Shown here: positions 86 to 24,000 of the stretch, in pieces
Layout of the letters: each line of letters begins with the position of its first letter
How positions within the stretch are numbered: the first letter of the stretch is position 1
From: Photobacterium aphoticum
Lineage (GTDB): Bacteria; Pseudomonadota; Gammaproteobacteria; Enterobacterales; Vibrionaceae
Assembly: GCF_001029435.1 (NCBI RefSeq)
Contig: NZ_LDOV01000053.1
Coordinates: 14,592-38,591, forward strand
Direction of reading: 5' to 3'
Length of the DNA stretch: 24,000 bases
Notes under the pieces: generated by a model
What the model was told of the DNA's origin: nothing
The model's database searches: none
Seen by the model: the letters and a program-made list of their open reading frames with translations, nothing else
Made by a program: the position numbers and the translations under genes

Positions 86-661
86 TTACACGTTAACACC
101 GTGCTCACGTGCCAATGCCGCTAGGCCGCCAGCAAAACCTTGACCCACAGCTTTGAATTTCCAATCACCATTGTGACGGTATAGCTCACCAAAGATCATT
201 GCCGTTTCAACAGACGCATCTTCAGACAAGTCAAAACGTGCGATTTCAGCGTTGTTATCGCTATTCACAATACGCATGTACGCGTTAGACACCTGACCGA
301 AGTTCTGGCTACGCACGTCAGCATCATGAATGGTCACGGCAAACACCAGTTTCTTCACTTCTGCTGGCACTTTATCAAAGCTGACAGTCACAGTTTCATC
401 ATCGCCGTCACCTTCGCCGGTGCGGTTGTCACCGTTGTGAACCACTGAGCCACATGCACTGGTGGTGTTGTTGAAGAAGATGAAGCTTGTATCAGACAAA
501 ACTTTGTTGTCATCGCCAACCATAAATACAGAACAGTCCAAGTCAAACTCTTGACCATCTGTTGCGCGTGCATCCCAGCCTAGGCCAGACAGTGCCACTT
601 TCATGGTTGGGGCTTCTTTGGTAAGAGAGACGTTACCGCCTTTAACTAATGAAACAGCCAT
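86..661 (-). CDS. terE: TerD-family tellurium/stress resistance protein TerE (191 aa)
   Basis: The protein begins [13 protein letters not shown] and carries DGQEFDLD and [13 protein letters not shown] acidic Ca-site motifs plus C-terminal [19 protein letters not shown]. The length matches TerE. I chose the ATG at 659-661 rather than the ORF-track start at 706, because the N-terminus then matches TerD/TerE. It is the last gene of the terZABCDE order. Confidence 0.93.
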
Positions 662-761
662 GTTCATTCCTTTTTGATGACAATTAAAATCAAAATACGT
701 GTACATTCACACGCAATGCGGGGAAGTTGCCCTCCCCCTGTTTGTTACTCATTAACAGCAA

Positions 762-1340
762 TTAAGACGCGTTGATGCCATATTGGGCACACATCGCGCC
801 AAGGCCGCCGCTGTAGCCTTGACCTACTGCACGGAATTTCCACTCACCATTGTGACGGTATAACTCACCAAAAATCATAGCGGTTTCCGTTGAGGCATCT
901 TCCGTCAAATCGTAACGCGCCACTTCCACATTGGTGTCTTCATTCACAATACGCATGAACGCATTGCTTACCTGACCAAAGCTCTGACGGCGCGTCATCG
1001 CATCGTGGATAGTGACAGTGAAAGCAATCTTCGTCACATCCGTGGGTACGTTATTCAACTCCACGATCAAGGACTCATCATCCCCGTCGCCTTCACCGGT
1101 ACGGTTATCACCGGTATGCACAACCGAGCCATCCAGAGAACGCAGGTTGTTGTAAAAAATGAAATCATTGTCGTGACGGACGCGGCCCATGTCTGACAAC
1201 AGGAACGCTGAACCATCAAGGTCGAAGTCCTGTCCGTCTGTGGCGCGTGTATCCCAACCCAGCCCCACGCGAACACGCACAAGGGATGGATCGGTTTTAC
1301 TCAGTGAAACATTACCGCCTTTAGATAATGAAACGCCCAT
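762..1340 (-). CDS. terD: Tellurium/stress resistance protein TerD (192 aa)
   Basis: [16 protein letters not shown]-terminus, [21 protein letters not shown] and [19 protein letters not shown]. The length is that of TerD. An AAGGAAG RBS lies 6 nt upstream of the ATG. Confidence 0.95.
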
Positions 1341-1372
1341 TCATGTCTTCCTTTTCATTTATCAACTTGGCA

Positions 1373-2419
1373 TTAAGCCGGTTTAGAGGTCTGTTCTTCG
1401 TCTTTCTTCTCAGGGAAGAGATAGCTGGCCAGTACACCCGCAACCAACACCGTGATCACCACAATCAAGCTGGTGGTAGCAGAAATGGTGTATTCATGGC
1501 CGAACAAATGAGAGGTCGCATTGAGGCCCAACTTACCTGCAATGAAGAACAACAATGCAATCACCGCTTTTTCAAGGTGGATCAGGTACTGCTTCATGGC
1601 TTCGAGAACGAAGTACAAGGTACGCAAACCCAAAATGGCAAACATCATGGCGCTGTAGACAATCAATGGCTCACGGCTGACCGCGATCACGGCCGGTACC
1701 GAGTCAAACGCAAACATCACGTCAGACAATTCCACCACCGCCAGACACAACAACAATGGCGTTGCGTAATATTTCGCCTTGCTAGTGCGGCCAACGGTCA
1801 CGTCTGCGTTCTCTGGTTTTGCCAGTTCTTCATCAACGTCTTTTTGTTTGATCAGGAAGTTATTACCTTTGATCTTTGGCCATACCGGAAACAGACGCTT
1901 CACTGCGCGGTACGCCAAATGCTGGGAATAATCTTCCACTTCGTCTTCCTGATCACCGCTGCGCAGCATCATCACCGCCGTCCAGGCCACCATCAGGGCA
2001 AAGACCACTTCCACCCAAGGGCCCAGCGCCAGCAAGCTGGTACCGATAGCGACAAAGATCCCCCGGAACACGATGGCACCGATGATCCCCCAGTAGAGGA
2101 TGCGGTGGCGGTACTTGTCAGGGACAGAGAACCAGGTAAAGATCGCCATGATCACAAACAAGTTATCGACGGAGAGCACTTTCTCCAGGGCATAACCGGT
2201 CACAAAGAGACTAGCAACTTCTAGTCCGTGGTGTAGATACAAGAACCCGGCGAAAGCAAAGGCCACAACAATCCAGAAAATGGACCACATAATGGCGCTT
2301 TTCAGCGGGATCACCTTGTCGTCACGGTGCATGTATAAATCGATTAAAATCGCACCGACTGACAAGCATACAAAGACCAATACGGTCTCAATGGGAAAAC
2401 CGATATGCGTTGATTCCAT
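1373..2419 (-). CDS. terC: Integral membrane protein TerC (348 aa)
   Basis: Multi-pass hydrophobic protein with the duplicated TerC-family signatures LSVDNLFVIMAIF and ELSDVMFAFDSVPAV. Position between terB and terD, and a length close to E. coli TerC. Confidence 0.95.
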   Translation of the reverse strand: MESTHIGFPIETVLVFVCLSVGAILIDLYMHRDDKVIPLKSAIMWSIFWIVVAFAFAGFLYLHHGLEVASLFVTGYALEKVLSVDNLFVIMAIFTWFSVPDKYRHRILYWGIIGAIVFRGIFVAIGTSLLALGPWVEVVFALMVAWTAVMMLRSGDQEDEVEDYSQHLAYRAVKRLFPVWPKIKGNNFLIKQKDVDEELAKPENADVTVGRTSKAKYYATPLLLCLAVVELSDVMFAFDSVPAVIAVSREPLIVYSAMMFAILGLRTLYFVLEAMKQYLIHLEKAVIALLFFIAGKLGLNATSHLFGHEYTISATTSLIVVITVLVAGVLASYLFPEKKDEEQTSKPA

Positions 2420-2435
2420 GTTTATAACTACCTAA

Positions 2436-2891
2436 TTACAGATGATATTCATCTGTTGAGAATCCCAATGCCTGGCAAATTTCACGGGCGATGGCTTTTT
2501 CCTGATCATCAAAATCGCCGTCACTTTTTGCCACCGCAATGCCGACACGTAGCGCTAACTGCGCCGCATCCGGCTGATCTTTCAAGCGCATCACATATTT
2601 CATCGCTTCGCCTTTACCGATATCGACATCAAATTCAAAACCGGTTGCCAGCTCATTGAAGAAAGCGATGACTTCTTGCACATCAAACACAGCTAAGTCT
2701 TTTGACTGCTGAATAAAGCCCACCATTTTTTGCTTTTCTTCTGCGCTCGCTCCGTTCGATGCCATGCTGATGCACGCACAGACCGCCACAGTCCCTTCCA
2801 TGAATTTGCGATTTTTAAAACGGCTCACTTGGCTCGCTAATTCACTCTGACCCGCAGAGACTGCATTTTTAATCTTGTTAAAAATTGACAT
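2436..2891 (-). CDS. terB: Tellurite resistance protein TerB (151 aa)
   Basis: MSIFNKIKNAV... through ...KSDGDFDDQEKAIAREICQALGF is typical of the TerB helical domain. The ATG at 2889-2891 is preceded by AAGGAAAT. The ORF-track start at 2939 would overlap the terA 3' end. Confidence 0.93.
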   Translation of the reverse strand: MSIFNKIKNAVSAGQSELASQVSRFKNRKFMEGTVAVCACISMASNGASAEEKQKMVGFIQQSKDLAVFDVQEVIAFFNELATGFEFDVDIGKGEAMKYVMRLKDQPDAAQLALRVGIAVAKSDGDFDDQEKAIAREICQALGFSTDEYHL

Positions 2892-2901
2892 AGTTATTTC
2901 C

Positions 2902-4110
2902 TTATTTGCTGCCGGCACGCCACCGGAAACCCCAACCAAATGCGCTGTCTAGCTCTTCGTGTCCGGAGAAATAACGGTCTAAACGCTGCACCGTAATTAC
3001 CCCGTTATCGTTGATCAATCGCGCAACGGCACACATACACTTGGTACGTCCACCCTCGGTCAAGCGAGTTTCTACTGGCGGTTCGTTTGGCACGGTGATC
3101 GTCACCGCACCATCGGTTTTGGTCCAATCCGGTACGCCCTGATAAATGAAGGCAAACACCAGCACTTCCGAAATGTGTTTCCAGTTGTCCCCGTTAATGT
3201 GTAGCCATTCACCGCTCTGAGAGGCCCCGGTGCGATCATCTTCCAGCAAGCGCACAAACGGCGGCCTGTTGAGATCACCAAACCGATTACCCAACGCCTG
3301 CACAATGTCGGCACTGCCATCTTTCATCCGCACAAACGCCCCGAGATCCAAATCCACTCCAGACGAACCAAAAATCCCGCTCAAGAAACCTTGGCCATTG
3401 TGGGTACCACGGTGCCAATTCAAATTCACTTTGATCAGCCCGTAATCCTGGCGTTTGGTTAAATTGACACTCGGATTCTGCTTGGTCAGCGATATCTTGC
3501 TCAGGTTAATCGTTGGCGATGGTGCCTGACCGGCCTGAGCCGCTGTTGATGAAGAAGGCACAGGAGAACCAACAGGCGGTGTCGTTGATGGCGGCGGCGA
3601 GGCAGGCGTTTGATCTTCATCCACCACCACACCATAAAACTCCGCCAGCGGTTTCAAACCACCGTTAAAGCCCTGTGCGACAAAGCGGAATTTCCACTGA
3701 CCATTGCGGCGATAACATTCACCCAAGATCAGCGCCCCTTCCGTTCTGGCTTGCATCTCGACATTCGCCTGAATATGAACCTGTCCAGCCTGCTCGATTT
3801 GAATCGTGATATGGCCCAAGGTAGACACCGTCTGGCCCGGATTGCAGGTACAGGTAAACGCCACCTTCTCGATATTGGCCGGCAGGCGATTCACATTCAG
3901 GGAGTACGAGGTATTCGTGCCTTCACTACGCAGCACCACGGCCTGCTCACGACACGCACGTTGACCGTAAAAGATCATGTCTGCGTCATGGGCCACTTTG
4001 CCATTGGCCTGCAAACGAAACGCAGACACATCGACGGGCTTTCCGGTAAGCACCCGCACGGTCAACTCACCGGCCGGAACCGGTGAATTTCCACCCGCTA
4101 TCAGTAACAT
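2902..4110 (-). CDS. terA: TerA, a two-TerD-fold-domain protein (402 aa)
   Basis: The N-terminal TerD-like domain ends ECYRRNGQWKFRFVAQGF. A Pro/Ser/Thr-rich linker (aa ~164-200, nt 3511-3621) follows. The C-terminal TerD-like domain has VDLDLG and a degenerate acidic loop, EDDRTGASQSGEW. Position between terZ and terB. Confidence 0.9.
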   Translation of the reverse strand: MLLIAGGNSPVPAGELTVRVLTGKPVDVSAFRLQANGKVAHDADMIFYGQRACREQAVVLRSEGTNTSYSLNVNRLPANIEKVAFTCTCNPGQTVSTLGHITIQIEQAGQVHIQANVEMQARTEGALILGECYRRNGQWKFRFVAQGFNGGLKPLAEFYGVVVDEDQTPASPPPSTTPPVGSPVPSSSTAAQAGQAPSPTINLSKISLTKQNPSVNLTKRQDYGLIKVNLNWHRGTHNGQGFLSGIFGSSGVDLDLGAFVRMKDGSADIVQALGNRFGDLNRPPFVRLLEDDRTGASQSGEWLHINGDNWKHISEVLVFAFIYQGVPDWTKTDGAVTITVPNEPPVETRLTEGGRTKCMCAVARLINDNGVITVQRLDRYFSGHEELDSAFGWGFRWRAGSK

Positions 4111-4116
4111 GACACG

Positions 4117-4707
4117 TTACACCAGCGCGTTTTTGATCACCGGGATCATGTCTTCCACGGTACGGCCCTGACAAGGCAGCCCGTGCGCCGTGAAGGACCA
4201 GTCACCGCCCTGGCGGGCCAGTGACGCAATCAAAATACCGGAATGTGGACCTTGTTCATTCAGTTTGTAATGACACACTTCCTGCTGACCGCTTGTCGTA
4301 TTCACGACACGACAGAACGCATTTTCGACTTCATTGAAAGTCTGCCCACGGAAGCTGTTTACCGTCACGGCTAAAAATGCCACGTTGCTTGGCAAAGCAT
4401 TCAGGTTCACGTCGATCACTTCATCATCGCCGTCCCCTTCGCCCGTCATGTTATCGCCACGGTGACGCACGGAACCACAACGGGAATTCAGTTGCTGGAA
4501 CCATACAAGATCAATCGGGTTGCCTTGCGCATCAAACAATACGCATGACGCATCCAAATCAATAGAATCTGATCCGCCAAACAGGCCGCCAAAAAAGCCG
4601 GCTTTCTTTTTAATCGGATCCCAACCAAGACCAATAGCGATCGTCGATAACGCAGAACCTGCTGTTTTCGCTAAAGAAACAGATTGATTTTTACTTAATG
4701 AAACCAA
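4117..4707 (-). CDS. terZ: TerD-family protein TerZ (196 aa), TTG start
   Basis: (M)VSLSKNQSVSLAK N-terminus, SIDLDASC and [13 protein letters not shown]. The TTG at 4705-4707 lies 6 nt after TAAGGAG. The 251-aa ORF-track version extends 55 codons into the AT-rich intergenic region with no homology-like sequence. Confidence 0.9.
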   Translation of the reverse strand: MVSLSKNQSVSLAKTAGSALSTIAIGLGWDPIKKKAGFFGGLFGGSDSIDLDASCVLFDAQGNPIDLVWFQQLNSRCGSVRHRGDNMTGEGDGDDEVIDVNLNALPSNVAFLAVTVNSFRGQTFNEVENAFCRVVNTTSGQQEVCHYKLNEQGPHSGILIASLARQGGDWSFTAHGLPCQGRTVEDMIPVIKNALV

Positions 4708-4986
4708 GTGAATCTCCTTATTACGGGTGTAATAACGTCCATTCCATATATCAATAAAAATATCAACAAAGGGTATATTGCTGATAGCTTTAGATAAAAC
4801 ACTTAGCCACGTATACAACCTATGAGGATGTGCCTTTATAGATGTATTCGGTGAGTAAACACGATAATACATTAAATTTTATCTTGTGTTTCCCATTCTA
4901 TTAATGGCTGGAACAAATTTGTGATTATTCACGCAAATAAACTGTATTCGATGTGACAACCGCACCGTTGTATTGATAATCGCCTT
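4708..4986. promoter_or_regulatory. Divergent promoter/control region between terZABCDE and the PRTase-HAD-StiP-lyase operon
   Basis: A 279-bp AT-rich non-coding gap between two divergently oriented operon starts. It contains the near-palindrome GTGATTATTCAC (4921-4932) and a TATCAA-N6-TATCAA direct repeat. I cannot place -10/-35 elements confidently. Confidence 0.5.
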
Positions 4987-6153
4987 ATGAATATTTCGCC
5001 CTCTGTCACGACTGAATTATCCACTATGATGAATAAAAGAAATCAACCGCTTTCGACGGGCACCATTGCCATGCAGATTGCCAAAGGTAAATGGCAAGAT
5101 ACTGATTTATTTGAGTTTGCAGAAAGAAAAAACCCGAAGCGCGCGTTCTTATTTGTCAGCAAAATTCTGGGTAAACATATCCCTGTTTCTCCTCGTAAAA
5201 TGCGATCCGCTTATCAGGATTTAGCACAACAAATACCTGAAAATATTCCCGAGCCCATCTTATTTATCGGCATGGCAGAAACCGCCGTGGGTTTAGCGGG
5301 CGGAATATATGAAGAAGCGAGAAAGAAATACCCAAACAGTTTGTTATTAACCACTACACGCCACCCGATTGACAGTGAATTATTGTGTGAATTTAAAGAA
5401 GAACATTCGCATGCTACTGACCATTTGATTTATATTCCTGACGGTGAAAACAAAATATCTTTTTGCACAAAATTTCGGACGCTGATCTTAATTGATGATG
5501 AATCCACAACAGGTCGAACATTTCATAATTTAATTTCATCTTTATTTCATGCCGGTCTTCGTGGCATTTCACAAATATTCACTGTGACTCTGACTGATTG
5601 GTCGGGCGATGTCTTGTCCCACCAGCATGATATGCCTATTACCTCCTTGGCATTAATGCGAGGCCAATGGGAATGGCACCCTGATCCCTCCGCGCCACTG
5701 CCGACCATGCCCAATGTGAATGTGACAGAAAAAGGCGCAGCCATGCTCTCAAGTCGTCAGGATTGGGGACGACGGGGGATGGCAGCCTATGACGGTACAG
5801 GTTGGCTAAACCGTTACAGTGCCTCGCCTGGCGAGCGCATTTTAGTGCTGGGCACCGGGGAATTCCTGTATCCGCCCTTTTTACTGGCCGAACAGTTAGA
5901 GCAGCAAGGGGCAGAGGTGCGCTTTAGCTCCACCACACGTTCCCCGATTGCCGAAGGGTTAGCGATTCAGTCCAGTCTCGCCTTTACCGACAACTATGGC
6001 CTGAATATCCCTAACTACTGTTACAACGTTGCCCATCAAACGTTTGATCGGATCATCGTCTGTACCGAAACCCGCGATTGCGATCTGGATCCGGCGTTCC
6101 TCGCCGCACTCGCCAATGTCGCTACCACCGTGGAGGTCGCCGTGTATGACTAA
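4987..6153 (+). CDS. ter-associated phosphoribosyltransferase-domain protein (PRTase + C-terminal TRSP-like region)
   Basis: Classical type I PRPP-binding loop LILIDDESTTGRTF. The N-terminal ERKNPKRAFLFVSKILGKHIPV block is as I recall it from ter-linked PRTase proteins. It is divergent from terZ. The start is uncertain (4987, or the ATGs near 5026), and neither has a strong RBS. Confidence 0.8.
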   Translation: MNISPSVTTELSTMMNKRNQPLSTGTIAMQIAKGKWQDTDLFEFAERKNPKRAFLFVSKILGKHIPVSPRKMRSAYQDLAQQIPENIPEPILFIGMAETAVGLAGGIYEEARKKYPNSLLLTTTRHPIDSELLCEFKEEHSHATDHLIYIPDGENKISFCTKFRTLILIDDESTTGRTFHNLISSLFHAGLRGISQIFTVTLTDWSGDVLSHQHDMPITSLALMRGQWEWHPDPSAPLPTMPNVNVTEKGAAMLSSRQDWGRRGMAAYDGTGWLNRYSASPGERILVLGTGEFLYPPFLLAEQLEQQGAEVRFSSTTRSPIAEGLAIQSSLAFTDNYGLNIPNYCYNVAHQTFDRIIVCTETRDCDLDPAFLAALANVATTVEVAVYD

Positions 6154-6955
6154 GCCCCTGTTTTTGGTTGATCTGGACGACAACCTATTCCAAACCCAAC
6201 GCAAGATGACGCAGAAAGGGCAAACACCGGCTGAAACCGCCGCCCTTGATCGCGCCCTGAAACCTCGCAGTTTTTTCTCACAAGAACAGGCTAACTTTGT
6301 GCATTGGCTGTTGGAACATGCCGATGTGATTCCGGTAACAGCGCGAGGCACCGAAGAAACCGCCCGCGTAACCATTCCCTTTACCTCATGGAAAGTGATG
6401 ACCCATGGTGCGGTGATCACTATGCCGGATGATCAGCCAGATCCTCAATGGCAAGATCAGATCCAAACCGCACTGATCCCTTATCAGCAGCAACTACACG
6501 ATCGTCAAGCCGCGCTGACCGCTGCGTTTAACGCCGCCAATATTGACGCATGGGCGCGCATTAACTTCGAATACGACGGTCAGGCCATCTACTTAGTGGC
6601 TAAACACACCGACAGCAGCAAGATTGACGAATTGTATGCGGTGGCGGATCAGGTCGACCGTGAACTGGGCACCGACGGCTTTTACATTCACCGTAACGAC
6701 AACAATATCGCCTGGCTGCCGCACTGCATTGAAAAAGGCAAAGCCACCCGTTACCTCATCGACAAACTGCGTGCCGACGAGCCGCACAAACCCATTATCG
6801 GATTAGGCGACAGCTTAAGTGACATGACTTTCTTACGTCAGTGCTCCTGGTTTGGCATGCCGCCACACAGCCAGTTGTCCAAACCGCTGTTGGATTTTAT
6901 CGATGCCGAACACGGCTCAACTCAACCCACAACGACCAAGTGGAATAATGTATGA
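6146..6955 (+). CDS. HAD-superfamily phosphatase (269 aa)
   Basis: HAD motif I LVDLDDNLF (DxD nucleophile pair), motif II VIPVTARG and motif IV GLGDSLSDMTF. The ATG at 6146 overlaps the upstream stop (ATGACTAA). The ORF-track start at 6029 lies inside the previous gene. Confidence 0.85.
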   Translation: MTKPLFLVDLDDNLFQTQRKMTQKGQTPAETAALDRALKPRSFFSQEQANFVHWLLEHADVIPVTARGTEETARVTIPFTSWKVMTHGAVITMPDDQPDPQWQDQIQTALIPYQQQLHDRQAALTAAFNAANIDAWARINFEYDGQAIYLVAKHTDSSKIDELYAVADQVDRELGTDGFYIHRNDNNIAWLPHCIEKGKATRYLIDKLRADEPHKPIIGLGDSLSDMTFLRQCSWFGMPPHSQLSKPLLDFIDAEHGSTQPTTTKWNNV

Positions 6956-8031
6956 CGACGTTTTCCGGTGCTTATTCACCCAACGATATCACCTTTCTGC
7001 TTACACCTATCGACATGGTCATGACCTCGGTGGAAGAAAAGGAACGGTTAATCCAATCTGGTCAGGCACATTACTCAGACATGCTCAGCCAAGAGCCGGC
7101 ACCGTCTGACGAACATTTGTCGATTTATGCTCAAGCCTTAGCCGACGGCGAACAGCGTCTGGCGAAAGAAGTGATGGTACTTGCCCTACAACTGCGCGAA
7201 CACTTTGCCGATAAACCGGTGGTGCTGACCAGCTTGGTCCGTGCGGGGGTGCCTTTAGGGGTCATGCTGCACCGTGCGTTGCAACAACTGGGACACCCAT
7301 CTTTTCACTATGGGATCAGCATTATTCGTGACCGGGGCATTGATGACAAAGCCCTGTCTGAAATAGAAGCCAAACACGGTACAGACAGCATTGTGTTTGT
7401 CGATGGCTGGACCGGAAAAGGAGCGATCACTCGTCAGCTCACCGCTTCTTTATCACAGCGTAAAGGCTATCCCGCTCAACCGCGCTTAGTGGTGTTGGCG
7501 GACCCGTGTGGTATGGCATGGATGAGCGCATCTGATGAAGACTGGTTGATCCCGTTTGGTATTCTCGGCGCGCCGGTCTCCGGTTTAGTGTCTCGCTCGG
7601 TATGGGCCAGTGAGGATTATCACGGCTGCGTCATTTGCGATCATCTGGCTGACTATGAATGCAGTCGCGCACTGGTGGATCGCATCAGCGCATTGCAACG
7701 CAGCTTACACTCACAGGCTATCGACACCCTTACATGGCAAACACCGTCGCACGACCACCACACCACTTTGCAAACCCTCTCACAGCAAGTGTTAGACGAT
7801 TTGCAACAGGCTTATCAGGTCGACCATATCAATCGCATTAAGCCGGGCATTGCCGAAGCCACCCGCGCTGTATTACGCCGGGTGCCAGATCATGTGCTGG
7901 TGCGAGACAAGCAAGATCCGGATGTCAAACTGCTGGTGCATTTAGCCGAGAAAAAGCACATCACCGTGATTGAAGCCGGTTCACGCCTTGGCCAGTACCG
8001 CGCCACGACAATCATCAAGAAGGTATTATGA
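6952..8031 (+). CDS. StiP-family ('cysteine protease StiP') PRTase-like protein with C-terminal PELOTA-like region
   Basis: PRTase-like loop IVFVDGWTGKGAI. The size (359 aa) and position in a ter-linked operon match the family as I recall it. ATGA start/stop overlap with the HAD gene. The PELOTA-like assignment of the C-terminus comes from family knowledge, not from a motif I can point to. Confidence 0.7.
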   Translation: MTTFSGAYSPNDITFLLTPIDMVMTSVEEKERLIQSGQAHYSDMLSQEPAPSDEHLSIYAQALADGEQRLAKEVMVLALQLREHFADKPVVLTSLVRAGVPLGVMLHRALQQLGHPSFHYGISIIRDRGIDDKALSEIEAKHGTDSIVFVDGWTGKGAITRQLTASLSQRKGYPAQPRLVVLADPCGMAWMSASDEDWLIPFGILGAPVSGLVSRSVWASEDYHGCVICDHLADYECSRALVDRISALQRSLHSQAIDTLTWQTPSHDHHTTLQTLSQQVLDDLQQAYQVDHINRIKPGIAEATRAVLRRVPDHVLVRDKQDPDVKLLVHLAEKKHITVIEAGSRLGQYRATTIIKKVL

Positions 8032-8960
8032 TGAAGCACTCCCCTTACGCGTTAGGCGCCACCTTGTACATGCCCGCGACACGTGATGACATTGTTCAGG
8101 TCGCGCTGCGCAATAAGATCCCGCATCTGCGTTCGATGGTGATTTGCCTTGAAGATGCGGTGGCCGATCACGAGGTTGAACAAGCACTCGCTAACTTAAT
8201 CACGATCACCCGCCAGTTAGCGACACACCGTCGTGATCATGAACAACCGATCATTTTTATCCGCCCAAGAGATTTAGACATGGCCGCCCACATTGTGGCG
8301 CACTATGACTTAACCGGTATTGATGGGTTTGTGTTCCCGAAATTTACCTTAGCAACCCTGCCCGAATGGGAAGCGATCACCGCCTCTACCCATTTGATGT
8401 GGATGCCGACGTTAGAAACCCAAGAGGTGTTTGACGGGCAAGCCATGCAGCAATTAGCCAATGCCTTGCATGCTAGCCCGATGCGGGATCGGATCATTGC
8501 ACTGCGTATTGGCGGTAACGATTTGATGAGTATTTTAGGAATCCGCCGCTCTCGCCATGCGACCATCTATGAAGGGCCGCTCAATTACGTGATGAAAATG
8601 CTCACCTGCACCTTTGGGGCCAAAGGCTTTGCCCTCACCTCGCCGGTGTTTGAACTGATCGATAACGTGGAGCTGCTCGAACAAGAACTGCAATTGGATT
8701 TGATCCACGGCTTAGTCGGCAAAACCGCCATTCACCCAAGCCAAATTGCCTGCATTCATGAAGCCTGGATGGTTGACCCGTCAGAATATGAAGACGCAAT
8801 CCGCATCATCAACAGCACACAAGCGGTGTACCAGCATGGCGGCGCGATGTGTGAGCCCGCGACGCATCGGCAATGGGCGAAAAATATTTTAGAGCGCCGT
8901 CAGTTGTTTGGCTTGCGCACACCCGAAGCGGCCAATGCCAAAGAGTTTGTTCATCTATAA
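8028..8960 (+). CDS. HpcH/HpaI aldolase / citrate-lyase beta (CitE)-like TIM-barrel C-C bond lyase
   Basis: CitE-type signature MVICLEDAVAD near the N-terminus, RIGGNDL, and GKTAIHPSQI (similar to the CitE 'K..IHP.Q' block). ATGA overlap with the preceding gene. Confidence 0.8.
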   Translation: MMKHSPYALGATLYMPATRDDIVQVALRNKIPHLRSMVICLEDAVADHEVEQALANLITITRQLATHRRDHEQPIIFIRPRDLDMAAHIVAHYDLTGIDGFVFPKFTLATLPEWEAITASTHLMWMPTLETQEVFDGQAMQQLANALHASPMRDRIIALRIGGNDLMSILGIRRSRHATIYEGPLNYVMKMLTCTFGAKGFALTSPVFELIDNVELLEQELQLDLIHGLVGKTAIHPSQIACIHEAWMVDPSEYEDAIRIINSTQAVYQHGGAMCEPATHRQWAKNILERRQLFGLRTPEAANAKEFVHL

Positions 8961-8990
8961 TCAACCTTTCTCATGCCAACAGCTAATGCA

Positions 8991-9037
8991 GAGTCAGTGC
9001 TTTCTCCCTCTCTTGAAACACTGGCTCTTTTTCTTTT
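8991..9037 (+). terminator. Intrinsic terminator of the four-gene operon
   Basis: GAGTCAGTG(c)TTTC ... GAAACACTGGCTC stem (9+4 bp, one bulge, one G-U pair) followed by TTTTTCTTTT, starting 30 nt after the stop at 8960. Confidence 0.7.
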
Positions 9038-9207
9038 GTGGCAAATGATTAACCCCATTGATTCAATCAACAATCACTCCATCGAAAAAACTGACCAAGA
9101 TGGTCAATGTCATGCGGTTTTCTGTGGTGTGTCATACGCCTACACTCACAGACAGAGACGATAGAACAAGCTCACAAACAGAAAATCGACCAGCAGGAGA
9201 CAGCATT

Positions 9208-9903
9208 ATGATCACACTCCGTCATGCCAACGAACGCGGCCAAGCAGACTTCGGCTGGCTCCAGACGCACCATTCTTTTTCTTTTGGGGAGTATTACGAT
9301 CCTGCTCACATGGGCTTTTCCGCCCTGCGTGTGATCAATGATGACATCGTTCAACCCGGCGCAGGGTTTGATACCCACGGCCATAAAGACATGGAAATCA
9401 TCACCTTTGTCCTCAAGGGCAGCATTGCCCACAAAGACAGCGAAGGGAATGTGGAAACCCTTCCAGCAGGAGAATTCCAACTGATGTCAGCTGGCCGAGG
9501 GATCGCCCACAGTGAGTTCAACCCATCAAGTACCGAGACGTTGCATTTGCTGCAGATTTGGATCCAACCCAATACCATCGGCGGCCAACCGGGTTACCAA
9601 CAAAAAGCCTTTGCCGTGCAAACCGGATTAACGCCAATCGCAACGCCAGACGGTCAACAAGGCACACTACACATCAAGCAAGATGCGACACTGTATCAAC
9701 TAACGCTGCCGCCTCAGACTGCACACACCCTGTCTGTTACAGCTGCTCGTCAGGTGTACATTCATCAGGTGGAAGGAGCATTAACGGTGAATGATGTGGC
9801 GTTATTGGCAGGTGATGGGGCGAAAATCCGTGATGAAAACACGCTGACACTGCGCAATACCGGTGACAGCACCGTCACGGCGCTGGTGTTTGATTTGCCG
9901 TAA
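9208..9903 (+). CDS. yhhW: Pirin-family protein (YhhW-like quercetinase-type cupin, 231 aa)
   Basis: MITLRHANERGQADFGWLQTHHSFSFGEYYDPAHMGFSALRVINDD and THGHKDMEIITFVLKG align closely with E. coli YhhW as I recall it, at the same length. An AGGAGA RBS lies 7 nt upstream of the ATG at 9208. The ORF-track start at 9058 adds 50 non-homologous codons. Confidence 0.88.
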   Translation: MITLRHANERGQADFGWLQTHHSFSFGEYYDPAHMGFSALRVINDDIVQPGAGFDTHGHKDMEIITFVLKGSIAHKDSEGNVETLPAGEFQLMSAGRGIAHSEFNPSSTETLHLLQIWIQPNTIGGQPGYQQKAFAVQTGLTPIATPDGQQGTLHIKQDATLYQLTLPPQTAHTLSVTAARQVYIHQVEGALTVNDVALLAGDGAKIRDENTLTLRNTGDSTVTALVFDLP

Positions 9904-9932
9904 TGGATACGGATTCAATTTCACAATGTGTC

Positions 9933-9973
9933 AAAAAATCCCTGTTGTTCAGGCAGTAACTGAACAACAGGGA
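9933..9973 (-). terminator. Intrinsic terminator for ygjH (may also stop pirin transcription)
   Basis: 14-bp perfect stem TCCCTGTTGTTCAG / CTGAACAACAGGGA with a 7-nt loop. The A6 run at 9933-9938 gives a U-tract on the minus strand; there is no U-tract on the plus strand. Confidence 0.8.
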
Positions 9974-10027
9974 AAGCAGGTTGTATGAATATAATAGTGA
10001 ATATAAAGATTGATGAAACAGTCGCCG

Positions 10028-10398
<371 letters not shown>

Positions 10399-11931: not shown

Positions 11932-15594
<3,663 letters not shown>

Positions 15595-20070: not shown

Positions 20071-21504
20071 TTACACCAACGCTGCTTTCTCTGCCGCAAA
20101 TGCAGCCAGGATTTTCTCCACCGACGTCAATACATCCTCTTGGCTGGTGTGGTAATTCAGAATCGAAATCAGCATCGTTTTCAGGCCTTTATAACCGGAT
20201 GTTGATGGGTACAAATACCCTTCCTGCTGCAAGCGATGCACCACGCGTTCTGTCAGCACATCACGGGAAGCCGTATCACCCGTGCCAAATTGCACAGAGA
20301 ATCGATTCGACACGACATCATTCAATACCGTAATGCCTTCCACTTCTGCCAGTTGTGCTGCCATCAATTTGGCCAAATCTGTACAGTTATCCAAATGCGC
20401 AGCAATACCGGCTTTACCTAATGACTTAAAGGCCGCATATACCGGTACGCCACGGGCACGGCGTGATGCTGCAATACCAAAGTTAATCGCATTACGATCT
20501 GGCTTGGCCATCGCATCATTGAGGTAATCACCCATATTGTTGCCGCCCATGGCTATGGTGATCGCGGATGGATCTTTCACAATCACCATACCGCAGTCGT
20601 ACGGCATGTTGAACCACTTGTGGCCGTCAGTATCAATGGAATCGATGCGCTCGATACCTTTCAACAAATGCTTTTGTTTATCACTGGCGGCGGCCCACAG
20701 GCCAATCGCACCATCAACATGGCACCACGCATTCGGGTGTGCCGCTACGCAATCGGCAATCTCATCAAACAAATCAAACGCACCGGAATCGATACAGCCC
20801 GCTTGTGCACACACCAAGGTCGGCCCTTCACAGTTGGCCATAATGTCACGCAGTGCTTCCGGCAACATACGCAAGTTATCATCGGTCGGCACTTTAATGA
20901 TGTCGTTCAGGCCGATACCGATCATCGATAGTGCACGCTTAATGGTGGAATGGATTTGATCGCTGAGAACCACATTGATACGCGGCGCGCCGTATAAGCC
21001 TTGCGTAGCGACATCCCACCCTGCTCGTTGCAACAAGGTGTTACGGGCGGTGATCAGCCCGGTATAAATCGCTTCCTGCGCCCCAGAGGTAAAGCCCACC
21101 GCTGAACCCGGCGTTAGCCCCAACAATTCCACCATCCATTCTGCAGCGGTTTCTTCCACCACCGCCATCGCAGGGCTGGAGACATAATACGGTACGTTTT
21201 GATCCCACGCGCTCACCAACCAGTCAGCGGCAAGGGAAGCTGGCAAAGCGCCACCAATGGCATAACCGAAGAAACGCGGGCCACCTGATGCAATCAGCCC
21301 TGCATCAACGTTTTTCACCATCTCATCAATCACGGCAGCCGGATCGCTACCCTCAAGCGGCAATGGTCCTCCAAGCGCATAACGCAGTTGCTCTGACGTG
21401 GCAACCTGATCGATTTTGCGCTCAGGCAGAGATTCAATGTACGAAACGGCGTGTTCACATGAACGTTGAAGCGGGGATTGATACTGATTAAATGCGTGTC
21501 CCAT
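20071..21504 (-). CDS. PLP-dependent group II amino-acid decarboxylase (aromatic-L-amino-acid/DDC-like fold, 477 aa)
   Basis: The PLP-lysine block DTDGHKWFNMPYDCGMVIVK parallels the DDC-type NPHKW...DCS..WVK motif. GFTSGAQEA and HVDGA(I)G blocks are also present. A GGAGGA RBS lies 7 nt upstream of the ATG at 21502-21504. The substrate cannot be inferred. Confidence 0.8.
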   Translation of the reverse strand: MGHAFNQYQSPLQRSCEHAVSYIESLPERKIDQVATSEQLRYALGGPLPLEGSDPAAVIDEMVKNVDAGLIASGGPRFFGYAIGGALPASLAADWLVSAWDQNVPYYVSSPAMAVVEETAAEWMVELLGLTPGSAVGFTSGAQEAIYTGLITARNTLLQRAGWDVATQGLYGAPRINVVLSDQIHSTIKRALSMIGIGLNDIIKVPTDDNLRMLPEALRDIMANCEGPTLVCAQAGCIDSGAFDLFDEIADCVAAHPNAWCHVDGAIGLWAAASDKQKHLLKGIERIDSIDTDGHKWFNMPYDCGMVIVKDPSAITIAMGGNNMGDYLNDAMAKPDRNAINFGIAASRRARGVPVYAAFKSLGKAGIAAHLDNCTDLAKLMAAQLAEVEGITVLNDVVSNRFSVQFGTGDTASRDVLTERVVHRLQQEGYLYPSTSGYKGLKTMLISILNYHTSQEDVLTSVEKILAAFAAEKAALV

Positions 21505-21795
21505 GGGACTGTCCTCCGGTCTTTATTGATGCCTCCATCCTAAGTGCAACCGATATTAAAAATTTACCATTTCACGACATCATGAGTATTCTATCTCTTA
21601 GCCTTAACGCGTATTTACCCCTTGTCGCCATACACGCAGATATAGAAATTGTCATTACTCCACTGATCACGAAATAAGCAATTGAACACCTAATTGCAAT
21701 TTTGTGATCTTAAGCCACGGAATGTTTCGACGTCTTTTTCGTTTTCGTTTCATTGCATTACATTTCATAGCAAATCCCCCACAGAGATATTAACC

Positions 21796-24000
21796 ATGAA
21801 AAAGACTCTCCTTGCTGGCCTGCTTGGTAGTGTATTAGCGGCTCCTTATGCCGTTGCTGCACCTGCTCATGATGCTGTTTCCGAACAACAATATGTCGCC
21901 GATATGCAAACCATGCATCGCATGATGAACGAACGTATCGAAGAGCTACGCGAATACGCGAGCCATGAAGAAAATATTATTCATCGCAATGAGCGTCGCT
22001 TTATCATGGTTGATGGTCGTGAATATGAAGTGGGGGAAAATAATTACCTGTACTTTGATATTCCTCGTCCTTTCCATAACGAAGAAATGTTCCGCCACAT
22101 CTTCGGCTTCTTTAATGAAGATTGGGAACTGAGCCTGTACGCACGTGGCATGGTGGCCGTAAACCGCATTTACGGTAACTACGACTACGGCAACGGCTGT
22201 TTGATGGAATACAACCCATCACGCCCATTCACGGCCGCTGATGGTAGCAAAACACCATTTTCACTAGAGATCAGCACCTGTCAGGTGGATGAGGGCCGCT
22301 CTCACCAAACGTTGCGTTACTTGGGTAAAGGCACCCCAATCACACATGAAACCTTCGGCTACGCACAATCGGGTGATTTCATCCCTGAATCTGTCGCGCT
22401 GCACGGTGACAAAGTCTACGTCGGTAACACCCACAGCGGTTTCTCACGCATCGACCGCTACGACATGCGCACCCAAAAAGCCCTACCGCCAATCACGGGC
22501 TTCACCCTGAACGGTCAGGAAGAAACCTACCGTATCGTGAGTGATGTGACGGAGCATAATGGCCGTCTGTTTGTGGCTTCTCTGTCCTCTAACCGCGTCG
22601 ATGTTTACGATCTGAATAACAACGATGAAATCATCATGTCACTGGGTACCGGCGTGTACTGGGGCGACAAGTTTGTTGATGCCCTCACCCACCCGTACAG
22701 CGTGGCAGCCAATGACGAATATGTTTTTGTTGCGGACATTACCGGTAAGATCTCCATCTACCGACAAAGTGACGTTACGCAGGCCAACCACAAACGCGCG
22801 GTGAAACACGCCTTCTTTGATTTGCCAGACAGTAACAGTATCTACCGCAACATCAAGATGGAAGTGGTCGCTAACGAGCTGATCGTCAGCTTCGACAACA
22901 GCAAAACATATGTGTTTGGCATTGATCAGATCGAACCAGGTCAAACCTTGATCCCAGCGAAGCAGATCATCAACAAATCACAGCGTCGTAATGTCTTTGA
23001 AGCACAAAATGGCACCGTATTTACAGGTACCAGCCAAGGTAAAGTAGAGCTATTCAACAAGGGCGATCTGCAATTCAACGAACACGGTATCGCGACGACG
23101 CCTGCGTATGAGTTCAGCACCTACTTCAATGAAAAATTAGACAAAGAAGTGGCAACCAAAGCCAGCTGGGATCTTGCGGCAAACACCGACACGCTGGCGA
23201 TGCTACAGGACAACACGATCCTGCTGGCGGATATGGAATCGCTAAAAGTCTACGTGAACAATGCTCCGGCTTGGGATCCTGCACCAGAGCTTGATCTGAA
23301 CGCATATGAAGTCAAAAGAAAGCCATTGCTGACGAACGAAGAAAGCTGGGAAAGCCTGACGCAAAACCACGAAGTGCGCGTCAATCGCCTGCTTTCAGGT
23401 AAACAGCGTTTGGATAGTTTAGAAATCATCAGCTACGCCGCACAGCGCACGTTCGATCTGGATGTTGAAGCACGCTTTGGTAAAACCGGCCCATGGGTGA
23501 AACTGGGTTCAATCAGCGAGTTGGAGCCATTTACATCGTTCAAGCTGGATCAAACACTGGAAGACAACGTCTACTACCCAACCACCAATGATGGGCAGTC
23601 TGTCACGGTGATGGGTCTGAAAGATGTGTCGTACATGCCAGCTAACCTGATCGACATTCGCCTGACATCAGACACCGACACTTTCGTTCAGAAGATTACC
23701 GATCTGAAACCAAACTGGCGCCTGCGCTTTGGTACCTACAGCCCAGAAACCCACGGTAACTGGGGTCGAATTACGGGTCCTTACGCCCGTGAGTGGATGA
23801 TCATGATGGCAAACTTTGCTTACATCATGAACAGCCCAGAGTTTGAACACATTTGGTTCAACTACAAAGAGACCTGGGGTCAAGGCACCAGCGAGTTCTT
23901 TGGTGATGCCGGCCAAGTGGACGCACCAAACGGTAACTTCACCGCTGAAGATTACGCACGTGTTTACCAAAACTTCATGAACCGTGATCTGATTGAACTG
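21796..24000 (+). CDS. Large secreted protein with beta-propeller-like repeats, function unknown (3' partial, >=735 aa)
   Basis: My hand translation from the ATG at 21796 is open to the window end, with no stop in 735 codons. It is absent from the ORF track, presumably because no stop lies within the window. Sec signal MKKTLLAGLLGSVLAAPYAVA|AP. Repeated strand motifs: DKVYVGNTHSGFSRIDRYD, GRLFVASLSSNRVDVYD, EYVFVADITGKISIYR, ELIVSFDNSKTYVFG, GTVFTGTSQGKVELFN. The only in-frame ATG after the upstream stop at 21691 is 21796. Confidence 0.8.
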   Translation, partial: MKKTLLAGLLGSVLAAPYAVAAPAHDAVSEQQYVADMQTMHRMMNERIEELREYASHEENIIHRNERRFIMVDGREYEVGENNYLYFDIPRPFHNEEMFRHIFGFFNEDWELSLYARGMVAVNRIYGNYDYGNGCLMEYNPSRPFTAADGSKTPFSLEISTCQVDEGRSHQTLRYLGKGTPITHETFGYAQSGDFIPESVALHGDKVYVGNTHSGFSRIDRYDMRTQKALPPITGFTLNGQEETYRIVSDVTEHNGRLFVASLSSNRVDVYDLNNNDEIIMSLGTGVYWGDKFVDALTHPYSVAANDEYVFVADITGKISIYRQSDVTQANHKRAVKHAFFDLPDSNSIYRNIKMEVVANELIVSFDNSKTYVFGIDQIEPGQTLIPAKQIINKSQRRNVFEAQNGTVFTGTSQGKVELFNKGDLQFNEHGIATTPAYEFSTYFNEKLDKEVATKASWDLAANTDTLAMLQDNTILLADMESLKVYVNNAPAWDPAPELDLNAYEVKRKPLLTNEESWESLTQNHEVRVNRLLSGKQRLDSLEIISYAAQRTFDLDVEARFGKTGPWVKLGSISELEPFTSFKLDQTLEDNVYYPTTNDGQSVTVMGLKDVSYMPANLIDIRLTSDTDTFVQKITDLKPNWRLRFGTYSPETHGNWGRITGPYAREWMIMMANFAYIMNSPEFEHIWFNYKETWGQGTSEFFGDAGQVDAPNGNFTAEDYARVYQNFMNRDLIEL

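Follow-up and report, generated by a model that had tools for sequence, protein, structure and literature searches.

Ter-linked biosynthetic modules were predicted in 2012 by Anantharaman, Iyer & Aravind to make a nucleoside-like metabolite, as that work is relayed in PMC11994780, PMC7824862 and PMC8115787, and the summary in the first of these distinguishes two-enzyme and five-enzyme versions. The module families are represented in Pfam by PF15609, PF12500, PF11202, PF15608, PF15617 and PF15632. The five-gene version is found on IncHI and Klebsiella virulence plasmids and in the ter island of E. coli O157 (for example NZ_CP110143.1), and encodes an ATP-grasp ligase (ATPgrasp_Ter), a PRTase_2-TRSP protein with a phosphoribosyltransferase (PRTase) domain, a haloacid dehalogenase (HAD) phosphatase, a StiP-PELOTA protein, and a C-C lyase. 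A four-gene version was reported in 2025 in Bacillus altitudinis 3W19 (PMC11994780), in which lyase, PRTase, StiP and HAD genes lie beside terB, terD and terC with no ATP-grasp gene listed; the authors took StiP to be a protease acting outside the pathway. Here we describe four genes at coordinates 5029-8960 of a 24,000-nucleotide stretch of the Photobacterium aphoticum genome (contig NZ_LDOV01000053.1, positions 14,592 to 38,591; hereafter the window), in our judgement a probable chromosomal copy of the conserved four-gene core of this Ter-associated module. On balance, they appear to form a single translationally coupled operon that is divergently transcribed from terZABCDE.

The window contains the ter neighbours, PRTase_2 with TRSP, a HAD enzyme, the PF11202-PELOTA_1 protein and the PF15617 lyase, and it differs from the full module in having no ATPgrasp_Ter amidoligase (PF15632), a feature that is variable within the family. 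As in the Klebsiella plasmid locus, the module is divergent from terZABCDE and the four genes are in the same order, with products that are 54-63% identical; even the 8-bp overlap of the PRTase and HAD genes is common to the two. However, the plasmid locus has an extra first gene, coding for the PF15632 ATP-grasp protein, and also has downstream DUF4236, CopG-like and terXYW-type von Willebrand factor A, kinase and phosphatase genes, whereas all of these are missing from the window, in which the operon closes with a terminator-like hairpin. The B. altitudinis set is alike in gene content, but it belongs to another phylum, has a different gene order, is co-directional with its ter genes, and is followed by yceG and yceH. 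Acinetobacter loci (such as L044) have the same core as the window plus ATP-grasp, and Acinetobacter baylyi StiP, the source of the Pfam name, has the same PF11202 and PELOTA_1 domains. A ligase-free set of four genes is already documented, and the window holds a further member of a known, uncharacterised module. An earlier reading of this DNA, made from its letters alone (the sequence-only reading), had proposed a pathway of phosphoribosyl pyrophosphate (PRPP)-dependent ribosylation, dephosphorylation and a C-C bond step, and this logic coincides with the published module prediction in the form in which the later papers recount it.

The first gene of the operon lies within an open reading frame (ORF) at 4987-6153 whose product has Pfam matches to PRTase_2 (E 3.8e-57) and TRSP (E 9e-24), and is 100% identical to a P. 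aphoticum protein. All of the homologues begin at the residue matching M15, and translation from the upstream ATG would meet a stop in P. japonica; the gene therefore probably starts at ATG 5029 and not at 4987. The PRPP loop, within LILIDDESTTGRTF, has the form D170-D171-E172..T175-G176-x-T178, of which D170-D171-E172, T175-G176 and T178 are family-invariant (motif invariance was measured over 72-78 homologues and, for StiP, over 33 diverse representatives). An AlphaFold2 (AF2) model with a predicted local distance difference test score (pLDDT) of 86 has APRT, XPRT and UPRT (the adenine, xanthine and uracil PRTases) as its top PDB folds, with PyrR also matched, and the modelled fold together with the complete motif (hydrophobic strand, acidic pair and T-G-x-T) points to a type I PRTase.

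The product of the third gene, containing IVFVDGWTGKGAI, matches both StiP (PF11202, E 6e-89) and PELOTA_1 (E 7e-27) in Pfam, and is 86% identical to StiP of P. japonica. Its AF2 model (33 diverse family members) has a mean pLDDT of 95 and has HGPRT/HPRT as the best PDB folds, with a probability of 1.00, and the C-terminal domain has a profile match to L7Ae/Snu13 (E 7e-5). The family-invariant residues are S94, R97, G99, P101, G103 and D151-G-W-T-G-K156. The two PRTase-type loops that the sequence-only reading had picked out are thus both present, in proteins that are both predicted from their models to adopt type I PRTase folds, and its description of these proteins as unrelated-looking is fair at the sequence level; profile-profile alignment with hhalign places the pyrophosphate and PRPP loops in register without reaching significance (E 0.057).

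The HAD protein encoded by the second gene has a weak Pfam match to S6PP and matches the SPP and MPGP subfamilies of HAD-IIB in NCBIfam. All four HAD motifs can be recognised (I, D9-x-D11-D12; II, T65; III, K197; IV, G221-D222-S223..D226), their residues are family-invariant, and the DLDDN nucleophile motif (residues 9-13) is intact, as had been claimed. The protein aligns over its full length with the Pseudomonas aeruginosa 'trehalose-6-phosphate phosphatases' (PDB 6CJ0, 6D3V/6D3W; E 1.5e-39 for 6D3V/6CJ0) and shares all of their HAD motifs, although it is only 37% identical to them and these enzymes, with trehalose-6-phosphate (T6P) as their reported substrate, were interpreted without genomic context. 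That context can be supplied: a HAD protein encoded on a P. aeruginosa megaplasmid closely matches these PDB chains (531 bits, with few differences over 251 residues), is likewise 37% identical to the window HAD, and its gene lies between PRTase_2 and StiP of a Ter module. The P. aeruginosa enzymes are those of Cross et al. 2018 (FASEB J), cited in PMC6838324, where T6P was their substrate. For one Ter-module member, the P. aeruginosa HAD, there is thus a crystal structure as well as a measured activity towards a glycoside 6-phosphate. This shows the family to be one of active Mg-dependent sugar-phosphate phosphatases of the capped HAD-IIB type, compatible with dephosphorylation of a phosphoribosyl glycoside, but it does not establish T6P as the physiological substrate.

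The fourth gene codes for a C-C_Bond_Lyase (PF15617, E 1.3e-102) containing CLEDAV, with E42-D43, N164-D165 and K232-T-x-I-H-P-x-Q239 as invariant residues; the CitE-type LEDAV signature that had been noted in a TIM-barrel lyase is present, and falls on residues that do not vary among the homologues. It shares the TIM-barrel HpcH/CitE superfamily and the E-D, N-D and IHPxQ motifs with the CitE, RipC and CLYBL acyl-CoA lyases, and matches acyl-CoA lyase beta chain and citrate lyase entries in the PDB at 5e-5. Against the equivalog models, however, it scores 49.3 versus 375 bits for RipC and 31 versus 443 for CitE, far under the NCBIfam cut-offs, and PF15617 is a family separate from CitE and RipC.

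The absence of an ATP-grasp gene, reported by the sequence-only reading for the window, is borne out both by tblastn searches with the Klebsiella Ter ATP-grasp protein and 47 ATP-grasp queries, which found neither a gene nor a remnant in the window, and by the gene calls and Pfam matches of its contig, which include no ATP-grasp. That reading also recognised that a ligase gene might lie just past terE. The contig ends 82 bp to the left of the window, but in the closest relative (L002, GCA_000755345.1) the region beyond terE contains a pyroglutamyl peptidase gene, a GreA/B-like gene, a LysR regulator and Flp-pilus genes, with no ATP-grasp gene among them, and the absence stands. The same four-gene arrangement, again with no ATP-grasp gene at the locus, is present in P. 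japonica, P. leiognathi and V. owensii, such that all four of the Vibrionaceae loci (these three and the window) lack the ligase. Nearly every gene of the L002 locus, including terZ, terC, StiP and lyase, is split by frameshifts, which look like assembly or sequencing errors and not decay. Directly downstream of the lyase gene, V. owensii and P. leiognathi have a DUF4236 gene and one encoding a Card1-type endonuclease domain (PF09002) (L088 12003-14424; L089 12004-14423), neither of which is present in the window. The position of the PF09002 gene is a hint that in some relatives a nuclease effector may be coupled to the module product.

To place these observations we surveyed 80 species-level loci anchored on StiP, with 10-kb flanks, in which ORFs were classed by iterated hidden Markov models (HMMs) and spot-checked with Pfam. 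The gene order PRTase_2, HAD, StiP, lyase is kept in almost all of the 80, with core gene spacing conserved at -23 to +4 bp across the compared loci. The ligase was counted in the 53 loci with a complete core flanked by 6 kb or more on each side: ATPgrasp_Ter (PF15632) is intact in 33, leaves no trace in 17 (about one third), and is frameshifted or truncated at the locus edge in two. The remaining locus, from an Erwinia metagenome-assembled genome (L013 7838-8044), has a 73-aa ATP-grasp remnant just upstream of PRTase_2, with 42% identity to residues 14-86, and this looks like loss caught midway. The ligase-free loci include four from Xenorhabdus, three from Burkholderia/Paraburkholderia, several from sphingomonads, and those of Psychromonas, Paucimonas, Halomonas and Bradyrhizobium. 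The StiP tree places the absences on at least eight distinct branches; two (Xenorhabdus and Burkholderia) are nested within ATP-grasp-positive clades. The gene has probably been lost repeatedly, although the tree also permits repeated gain. The picture differs among sequenced plasmids, where 2504 records match the ATP-grasp protein and a similar number, 2574, match StiP; these near-equal counts probably account for the five-gene version being the one described.

The core genes are also joined by natural fusions, both of PRTase_2-TRSP to StiP-PELOTA (P0202, P0245 and many other clusters, of about 720-920 aa) and of HAD to StiP (P0141; about 610-670 aa). Two further genes are present in the module of the P. 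aeruginosa megaplasmid (L091): one annotated as a 'trypsin-like peptidase' (8897-10036), which separates ATP-grasp from PRTase_2, and another HAD gene (14015-14743), downstream of the lyase. Many other loci have a gene of about the size of the former directly upstream of PRTase_2, where its HMM label is TerD-like.

The sequence-only reading had called for such a survey and had taken the missing ligase to suggest a shorter pathway or a different product; spelled out, loss of the ligase would define a shorter pathway with a chemically different product, for example an un-amidated core. In favor of this, the ligase is missing from a whole clade (Vibrionaceae) and from about a third of loci in which the other four genes are intact and conserved, and omission of an amide-forming step must yield a product lacking this bond, unless its place is taken by a housekeeping enzyme. 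We scanned the core enzymes for columns that are conserved in ATP-grasp-positive loci and changed in at least four independent ligase-free lineages. None of the four enzymes has a column that switches consistently; the few candidates are conservative changes, mainly in the most divergent lineages, and most are unchanged in Vibrionaceae, Xenorhabdus and Burkholderia, which otherwise match the ATP-grasp-positive consensus. With no convergent change in the core enzymes there is thus no sequence evidence of retargeting or of a different product. Moreover, both the Erwinia remnant and the scattered pattern of absences resemble what casual loss of a dispensable gene would leave, and an ATP-grasp enzyme could be encoded elsewhere in the genome. 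We consider a different product unlikely, if conceivable, and an optional add-on fits these data better than a redesigned pathway. Neither is the ligase-free set as special as had been implied, since its four genes are the near-universal core and about one third of species-level loci have no ligase. With moderate confidence we regard the ATP-grasp ligase of the plasmid-borne five-gene version as an accessory step, and it is reasonably likely that its absence here reflects a common lineage-level state of the Vibrionaceae and no new pathway design.

For the operon as a whole we infer a four-step working scheme, which we favor somewhat. The CitE-like lyase would form or cleave a C-C bond, and so make or trim a carboxylate- or acyl-CoA-derived aglycone from a precursor of the acyl-CoA or 2-oxoacid type. 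PRTase_2-TRSP would then move ribose-5-phosphate from PRPP to this aglycone or to a base, with StiP, combining PRTase and L7Ae folds, physically associated with PRTase_2 as a second or degenerate phosphoribosyl-binding subunit. The HAD-IIB enzyme would strip the sugar phosphate to give a nucleoside-like small molecule, and this would be sensed or handled by TerD, TerB and TerC. Several points weigh against the scheme. A literature search on the chemistry of the module recovered no reported product, substrate or activity for PRTase_2, StiP or the lyase, and the sole biochemical datum for the HAD family is hydrolysis of T6P, which is not a nucleotide; the 5'-dephosphorylation role proposed by the sequence-only reading fares poorly for the same reason, in that the nearest characterised relative is reported as a T6P phosphatase and not a 5'-nucleotidase. 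The PRPP loop of StiP has a single acidic residue, within an invariant D-G-W-T-G-K-G, and StiP may thus bind and not catalyse. Lastly, an unlinked ATP-grasp may be present elsewhere in the genome. We entertain a stronger version more tentatively, and think it doubtful: that four genes and not five are the self-sufficient unit, with the HAD acting on a phosphoribosyl glycoside, PRTase_2 and StiP in one complex, because the natural fusions suggest one, and ligase-free lineages such as Vibrionaceae and Xenorhabdus making a signal molecule that is un-amidated and simpler than that of the plasmid-borne systems.

The L7Ae/Snu13 and PELOTA_1 matches of the StiP C-terminal domain, and the presence of PyrR-type PRTase folds among the structural neighbours of PRTase_2, raise an alternative in which the module acts on RNA, the L7Ae/PELOTA-like domain docking a K-turn-like target and the PRTase folds binding or modifying RNA, as does PyrR. 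We regard this as improbable; a search of the whole window with Rfam gave nothing at gathering score, the HAD sugar-phosphatase and the CitE-like lyase have no obvious role in such a process, and the PRPP-loop residues of PRTase_2 are invariant. It seems more improbable still that the database annotations are correct, with StiP a cysteine protease for cell morphology, the HAD an osmoprotective T6P phosphatase, and no single pathway uniting them. The name 'cysteine protease StiP' is used by Pfam and NCBI and comes from Reichert et al. 2013, as cited in PMC11994780, and the HAD orthologue carries the PDB name 'trehalose phosphatase' and was used with T6P as substrate in PMC6838324. However, there is no protease fold among the listed top structural matches of the StiP model, which are to HGPRT-type PRTases, and no cysteine is invariant among the 33 diverse members, the HGC cysteine being replaced in several. 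With a PRTase fold and no invariant cysteine StiP therefore does not look like a cysteine protease, and neither fold nor conservation here supports the assignment made for A. baylyi StiP. The four-gene operon contains no OtsA-like T6P synthase gene, and across phyla the four genes stay in order and overlapping, with some even fused. We thus flag both annotations, 'cysteine protease' and 'trehalose phosphatase', as misleading, and retain the four-step scheme as the preferred interpretation.

The coordinates of the operon and of terZABCDE, which adjoins it on the minus strand in the left third of the window (86-4707), are listed in Table 1. All three of the gene-junction overlaps claimed by the sequence-only reading are exact (ATGACTAA at 6146-6153, ATGA at 6952-6955, and ATGA at 8028-8031), and overlapping stop and start codons support translational coupling, although the 'fixed stoichiometry' also claimed goes beyond such evidence. 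Downstream of the lyase gene a hairpin followed by a T-run (TTTTTCTTTT) has a folding energy of -24.6 kcal/mol (z -4.0), equalled by none of 200 shuffled sequences, and probably marks the end of the four-gene operon; it was detected by folding, having been missed by a consensus terminator scan because of a limit on loop size.

Table 1. Coordinates of the ter genes, the divergent four-gene operon and associated signals in the window.
Feature	Coordinates	Strand	Basis
terE, TerD-domain protein, 191 aa	86-661	-	Gene call and PF02342; also the query for finding relatives
terD, TerD domain, 192 aa	762-1340	-	PF02342, E 2.2e-85
terC, integral membrane TerC family	1373-2419	-	PF03741, E 1.4e-43
terB, 151 aa gene call	2436-2891	-	PF05099, E 1.1e-19
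terA, TerD-domain protein, 402 aa	2902-4110	-	PF02342, E 1.2e-27
terZ, TerD domain; likely start TTG 4707, ORF reaches 4872	4117-4707	-	PF02342, E 9e-42
Divergent intergenic region, putative promoter region	4708-5028		Consensus matches and conserved block
PRTase_2 + TRSP protein; longest ORF from 4987	5029-6153	+	Pfam, invariant residues, AF2 model
HAD-IIB phosphatase, 269 aa	6146-6955	+	Weak subfamily profile matches, motifs I-IV, PDB match
StiP (PF11202, PRTase-fold N-domain) + PELOTA_1/L7Ae-like C-domain	6952-8031	+	Pfam, AF2 model
CitE/HpcH-like TIM-barrel C-C lyase (PF15617)	8028-8960	+	Pfam, invariant motifs
Terminator-like hairpin, then TTTTTCTTTT	8990-9037	+	Folding energy versus shuffles

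The longest ORF for terZ (4117-4872) would give a 55-residue N-terminal extension relative to its relatives (196-197 aa), and the start codon is probably TTG 4707, which is six bases past AAGGAG and gives MVSLSKNQ..., the usual TerZ start. Starts of 4707 for terZ and 5029 for PRTase_2 widen the divergent intergenic region from 114 bp to about 320 bp. It contains a promoter-like match on the plus strand (GTGACA-16-GATAAT, 4953-4980), next to a block at about 4914-4948 whose sequence (AATTTGTGATTATTCACGCAAAT) is conserved in P. japonica and includes the inverted half-sites GTGA-N4-TCAC. The block and adjoining match (4914-4980) are absent from P. leiognathi and V. owensii, and may constitute a candidate operator serving both divergent operons.

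The genes to the right of the hairpin code for a pirin, a tRNA-binding-domain protein, a lacI/lacZ/DUF386 cluster, two amino-acid permeases and a pyridoxal phosphate-dependent decarboxylase, and are unrelated to the Ter-linked operon. The pirin gene (9208-9903) was considered as an operon member and rejected; it lies past the terminator-like hairpin and its position is not kept in P. japonica, P. leiognathi or V. owensii. No ORF above about 100 aa is listed at 21500-24000, probably because a long plus-strand gene overruns the right end of the window; the corresponding position in P. japonica holds an 858-aa gene with no Pfam matches. PADLOC defence models gave no match for any of six proteins, and megablast against E. 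coli genomes gave no match.

The locus itself is not unusual. Ter loci are widespread in pathogens and have been connected with phenotypes involving tellurite, phages, colicins and gut fitness. With its clean terminator, this compact four-gene chromosomal operon serves conveniently as a minimal construct for product discovery, and the finding that the ligase is optional in the survey guides the choice of genes to retain in experiments. If the four genes are indeed a self-sufficient unit and ligase-free lineages make an un-amidated signal, then Ter systems would use at least two related ligands.

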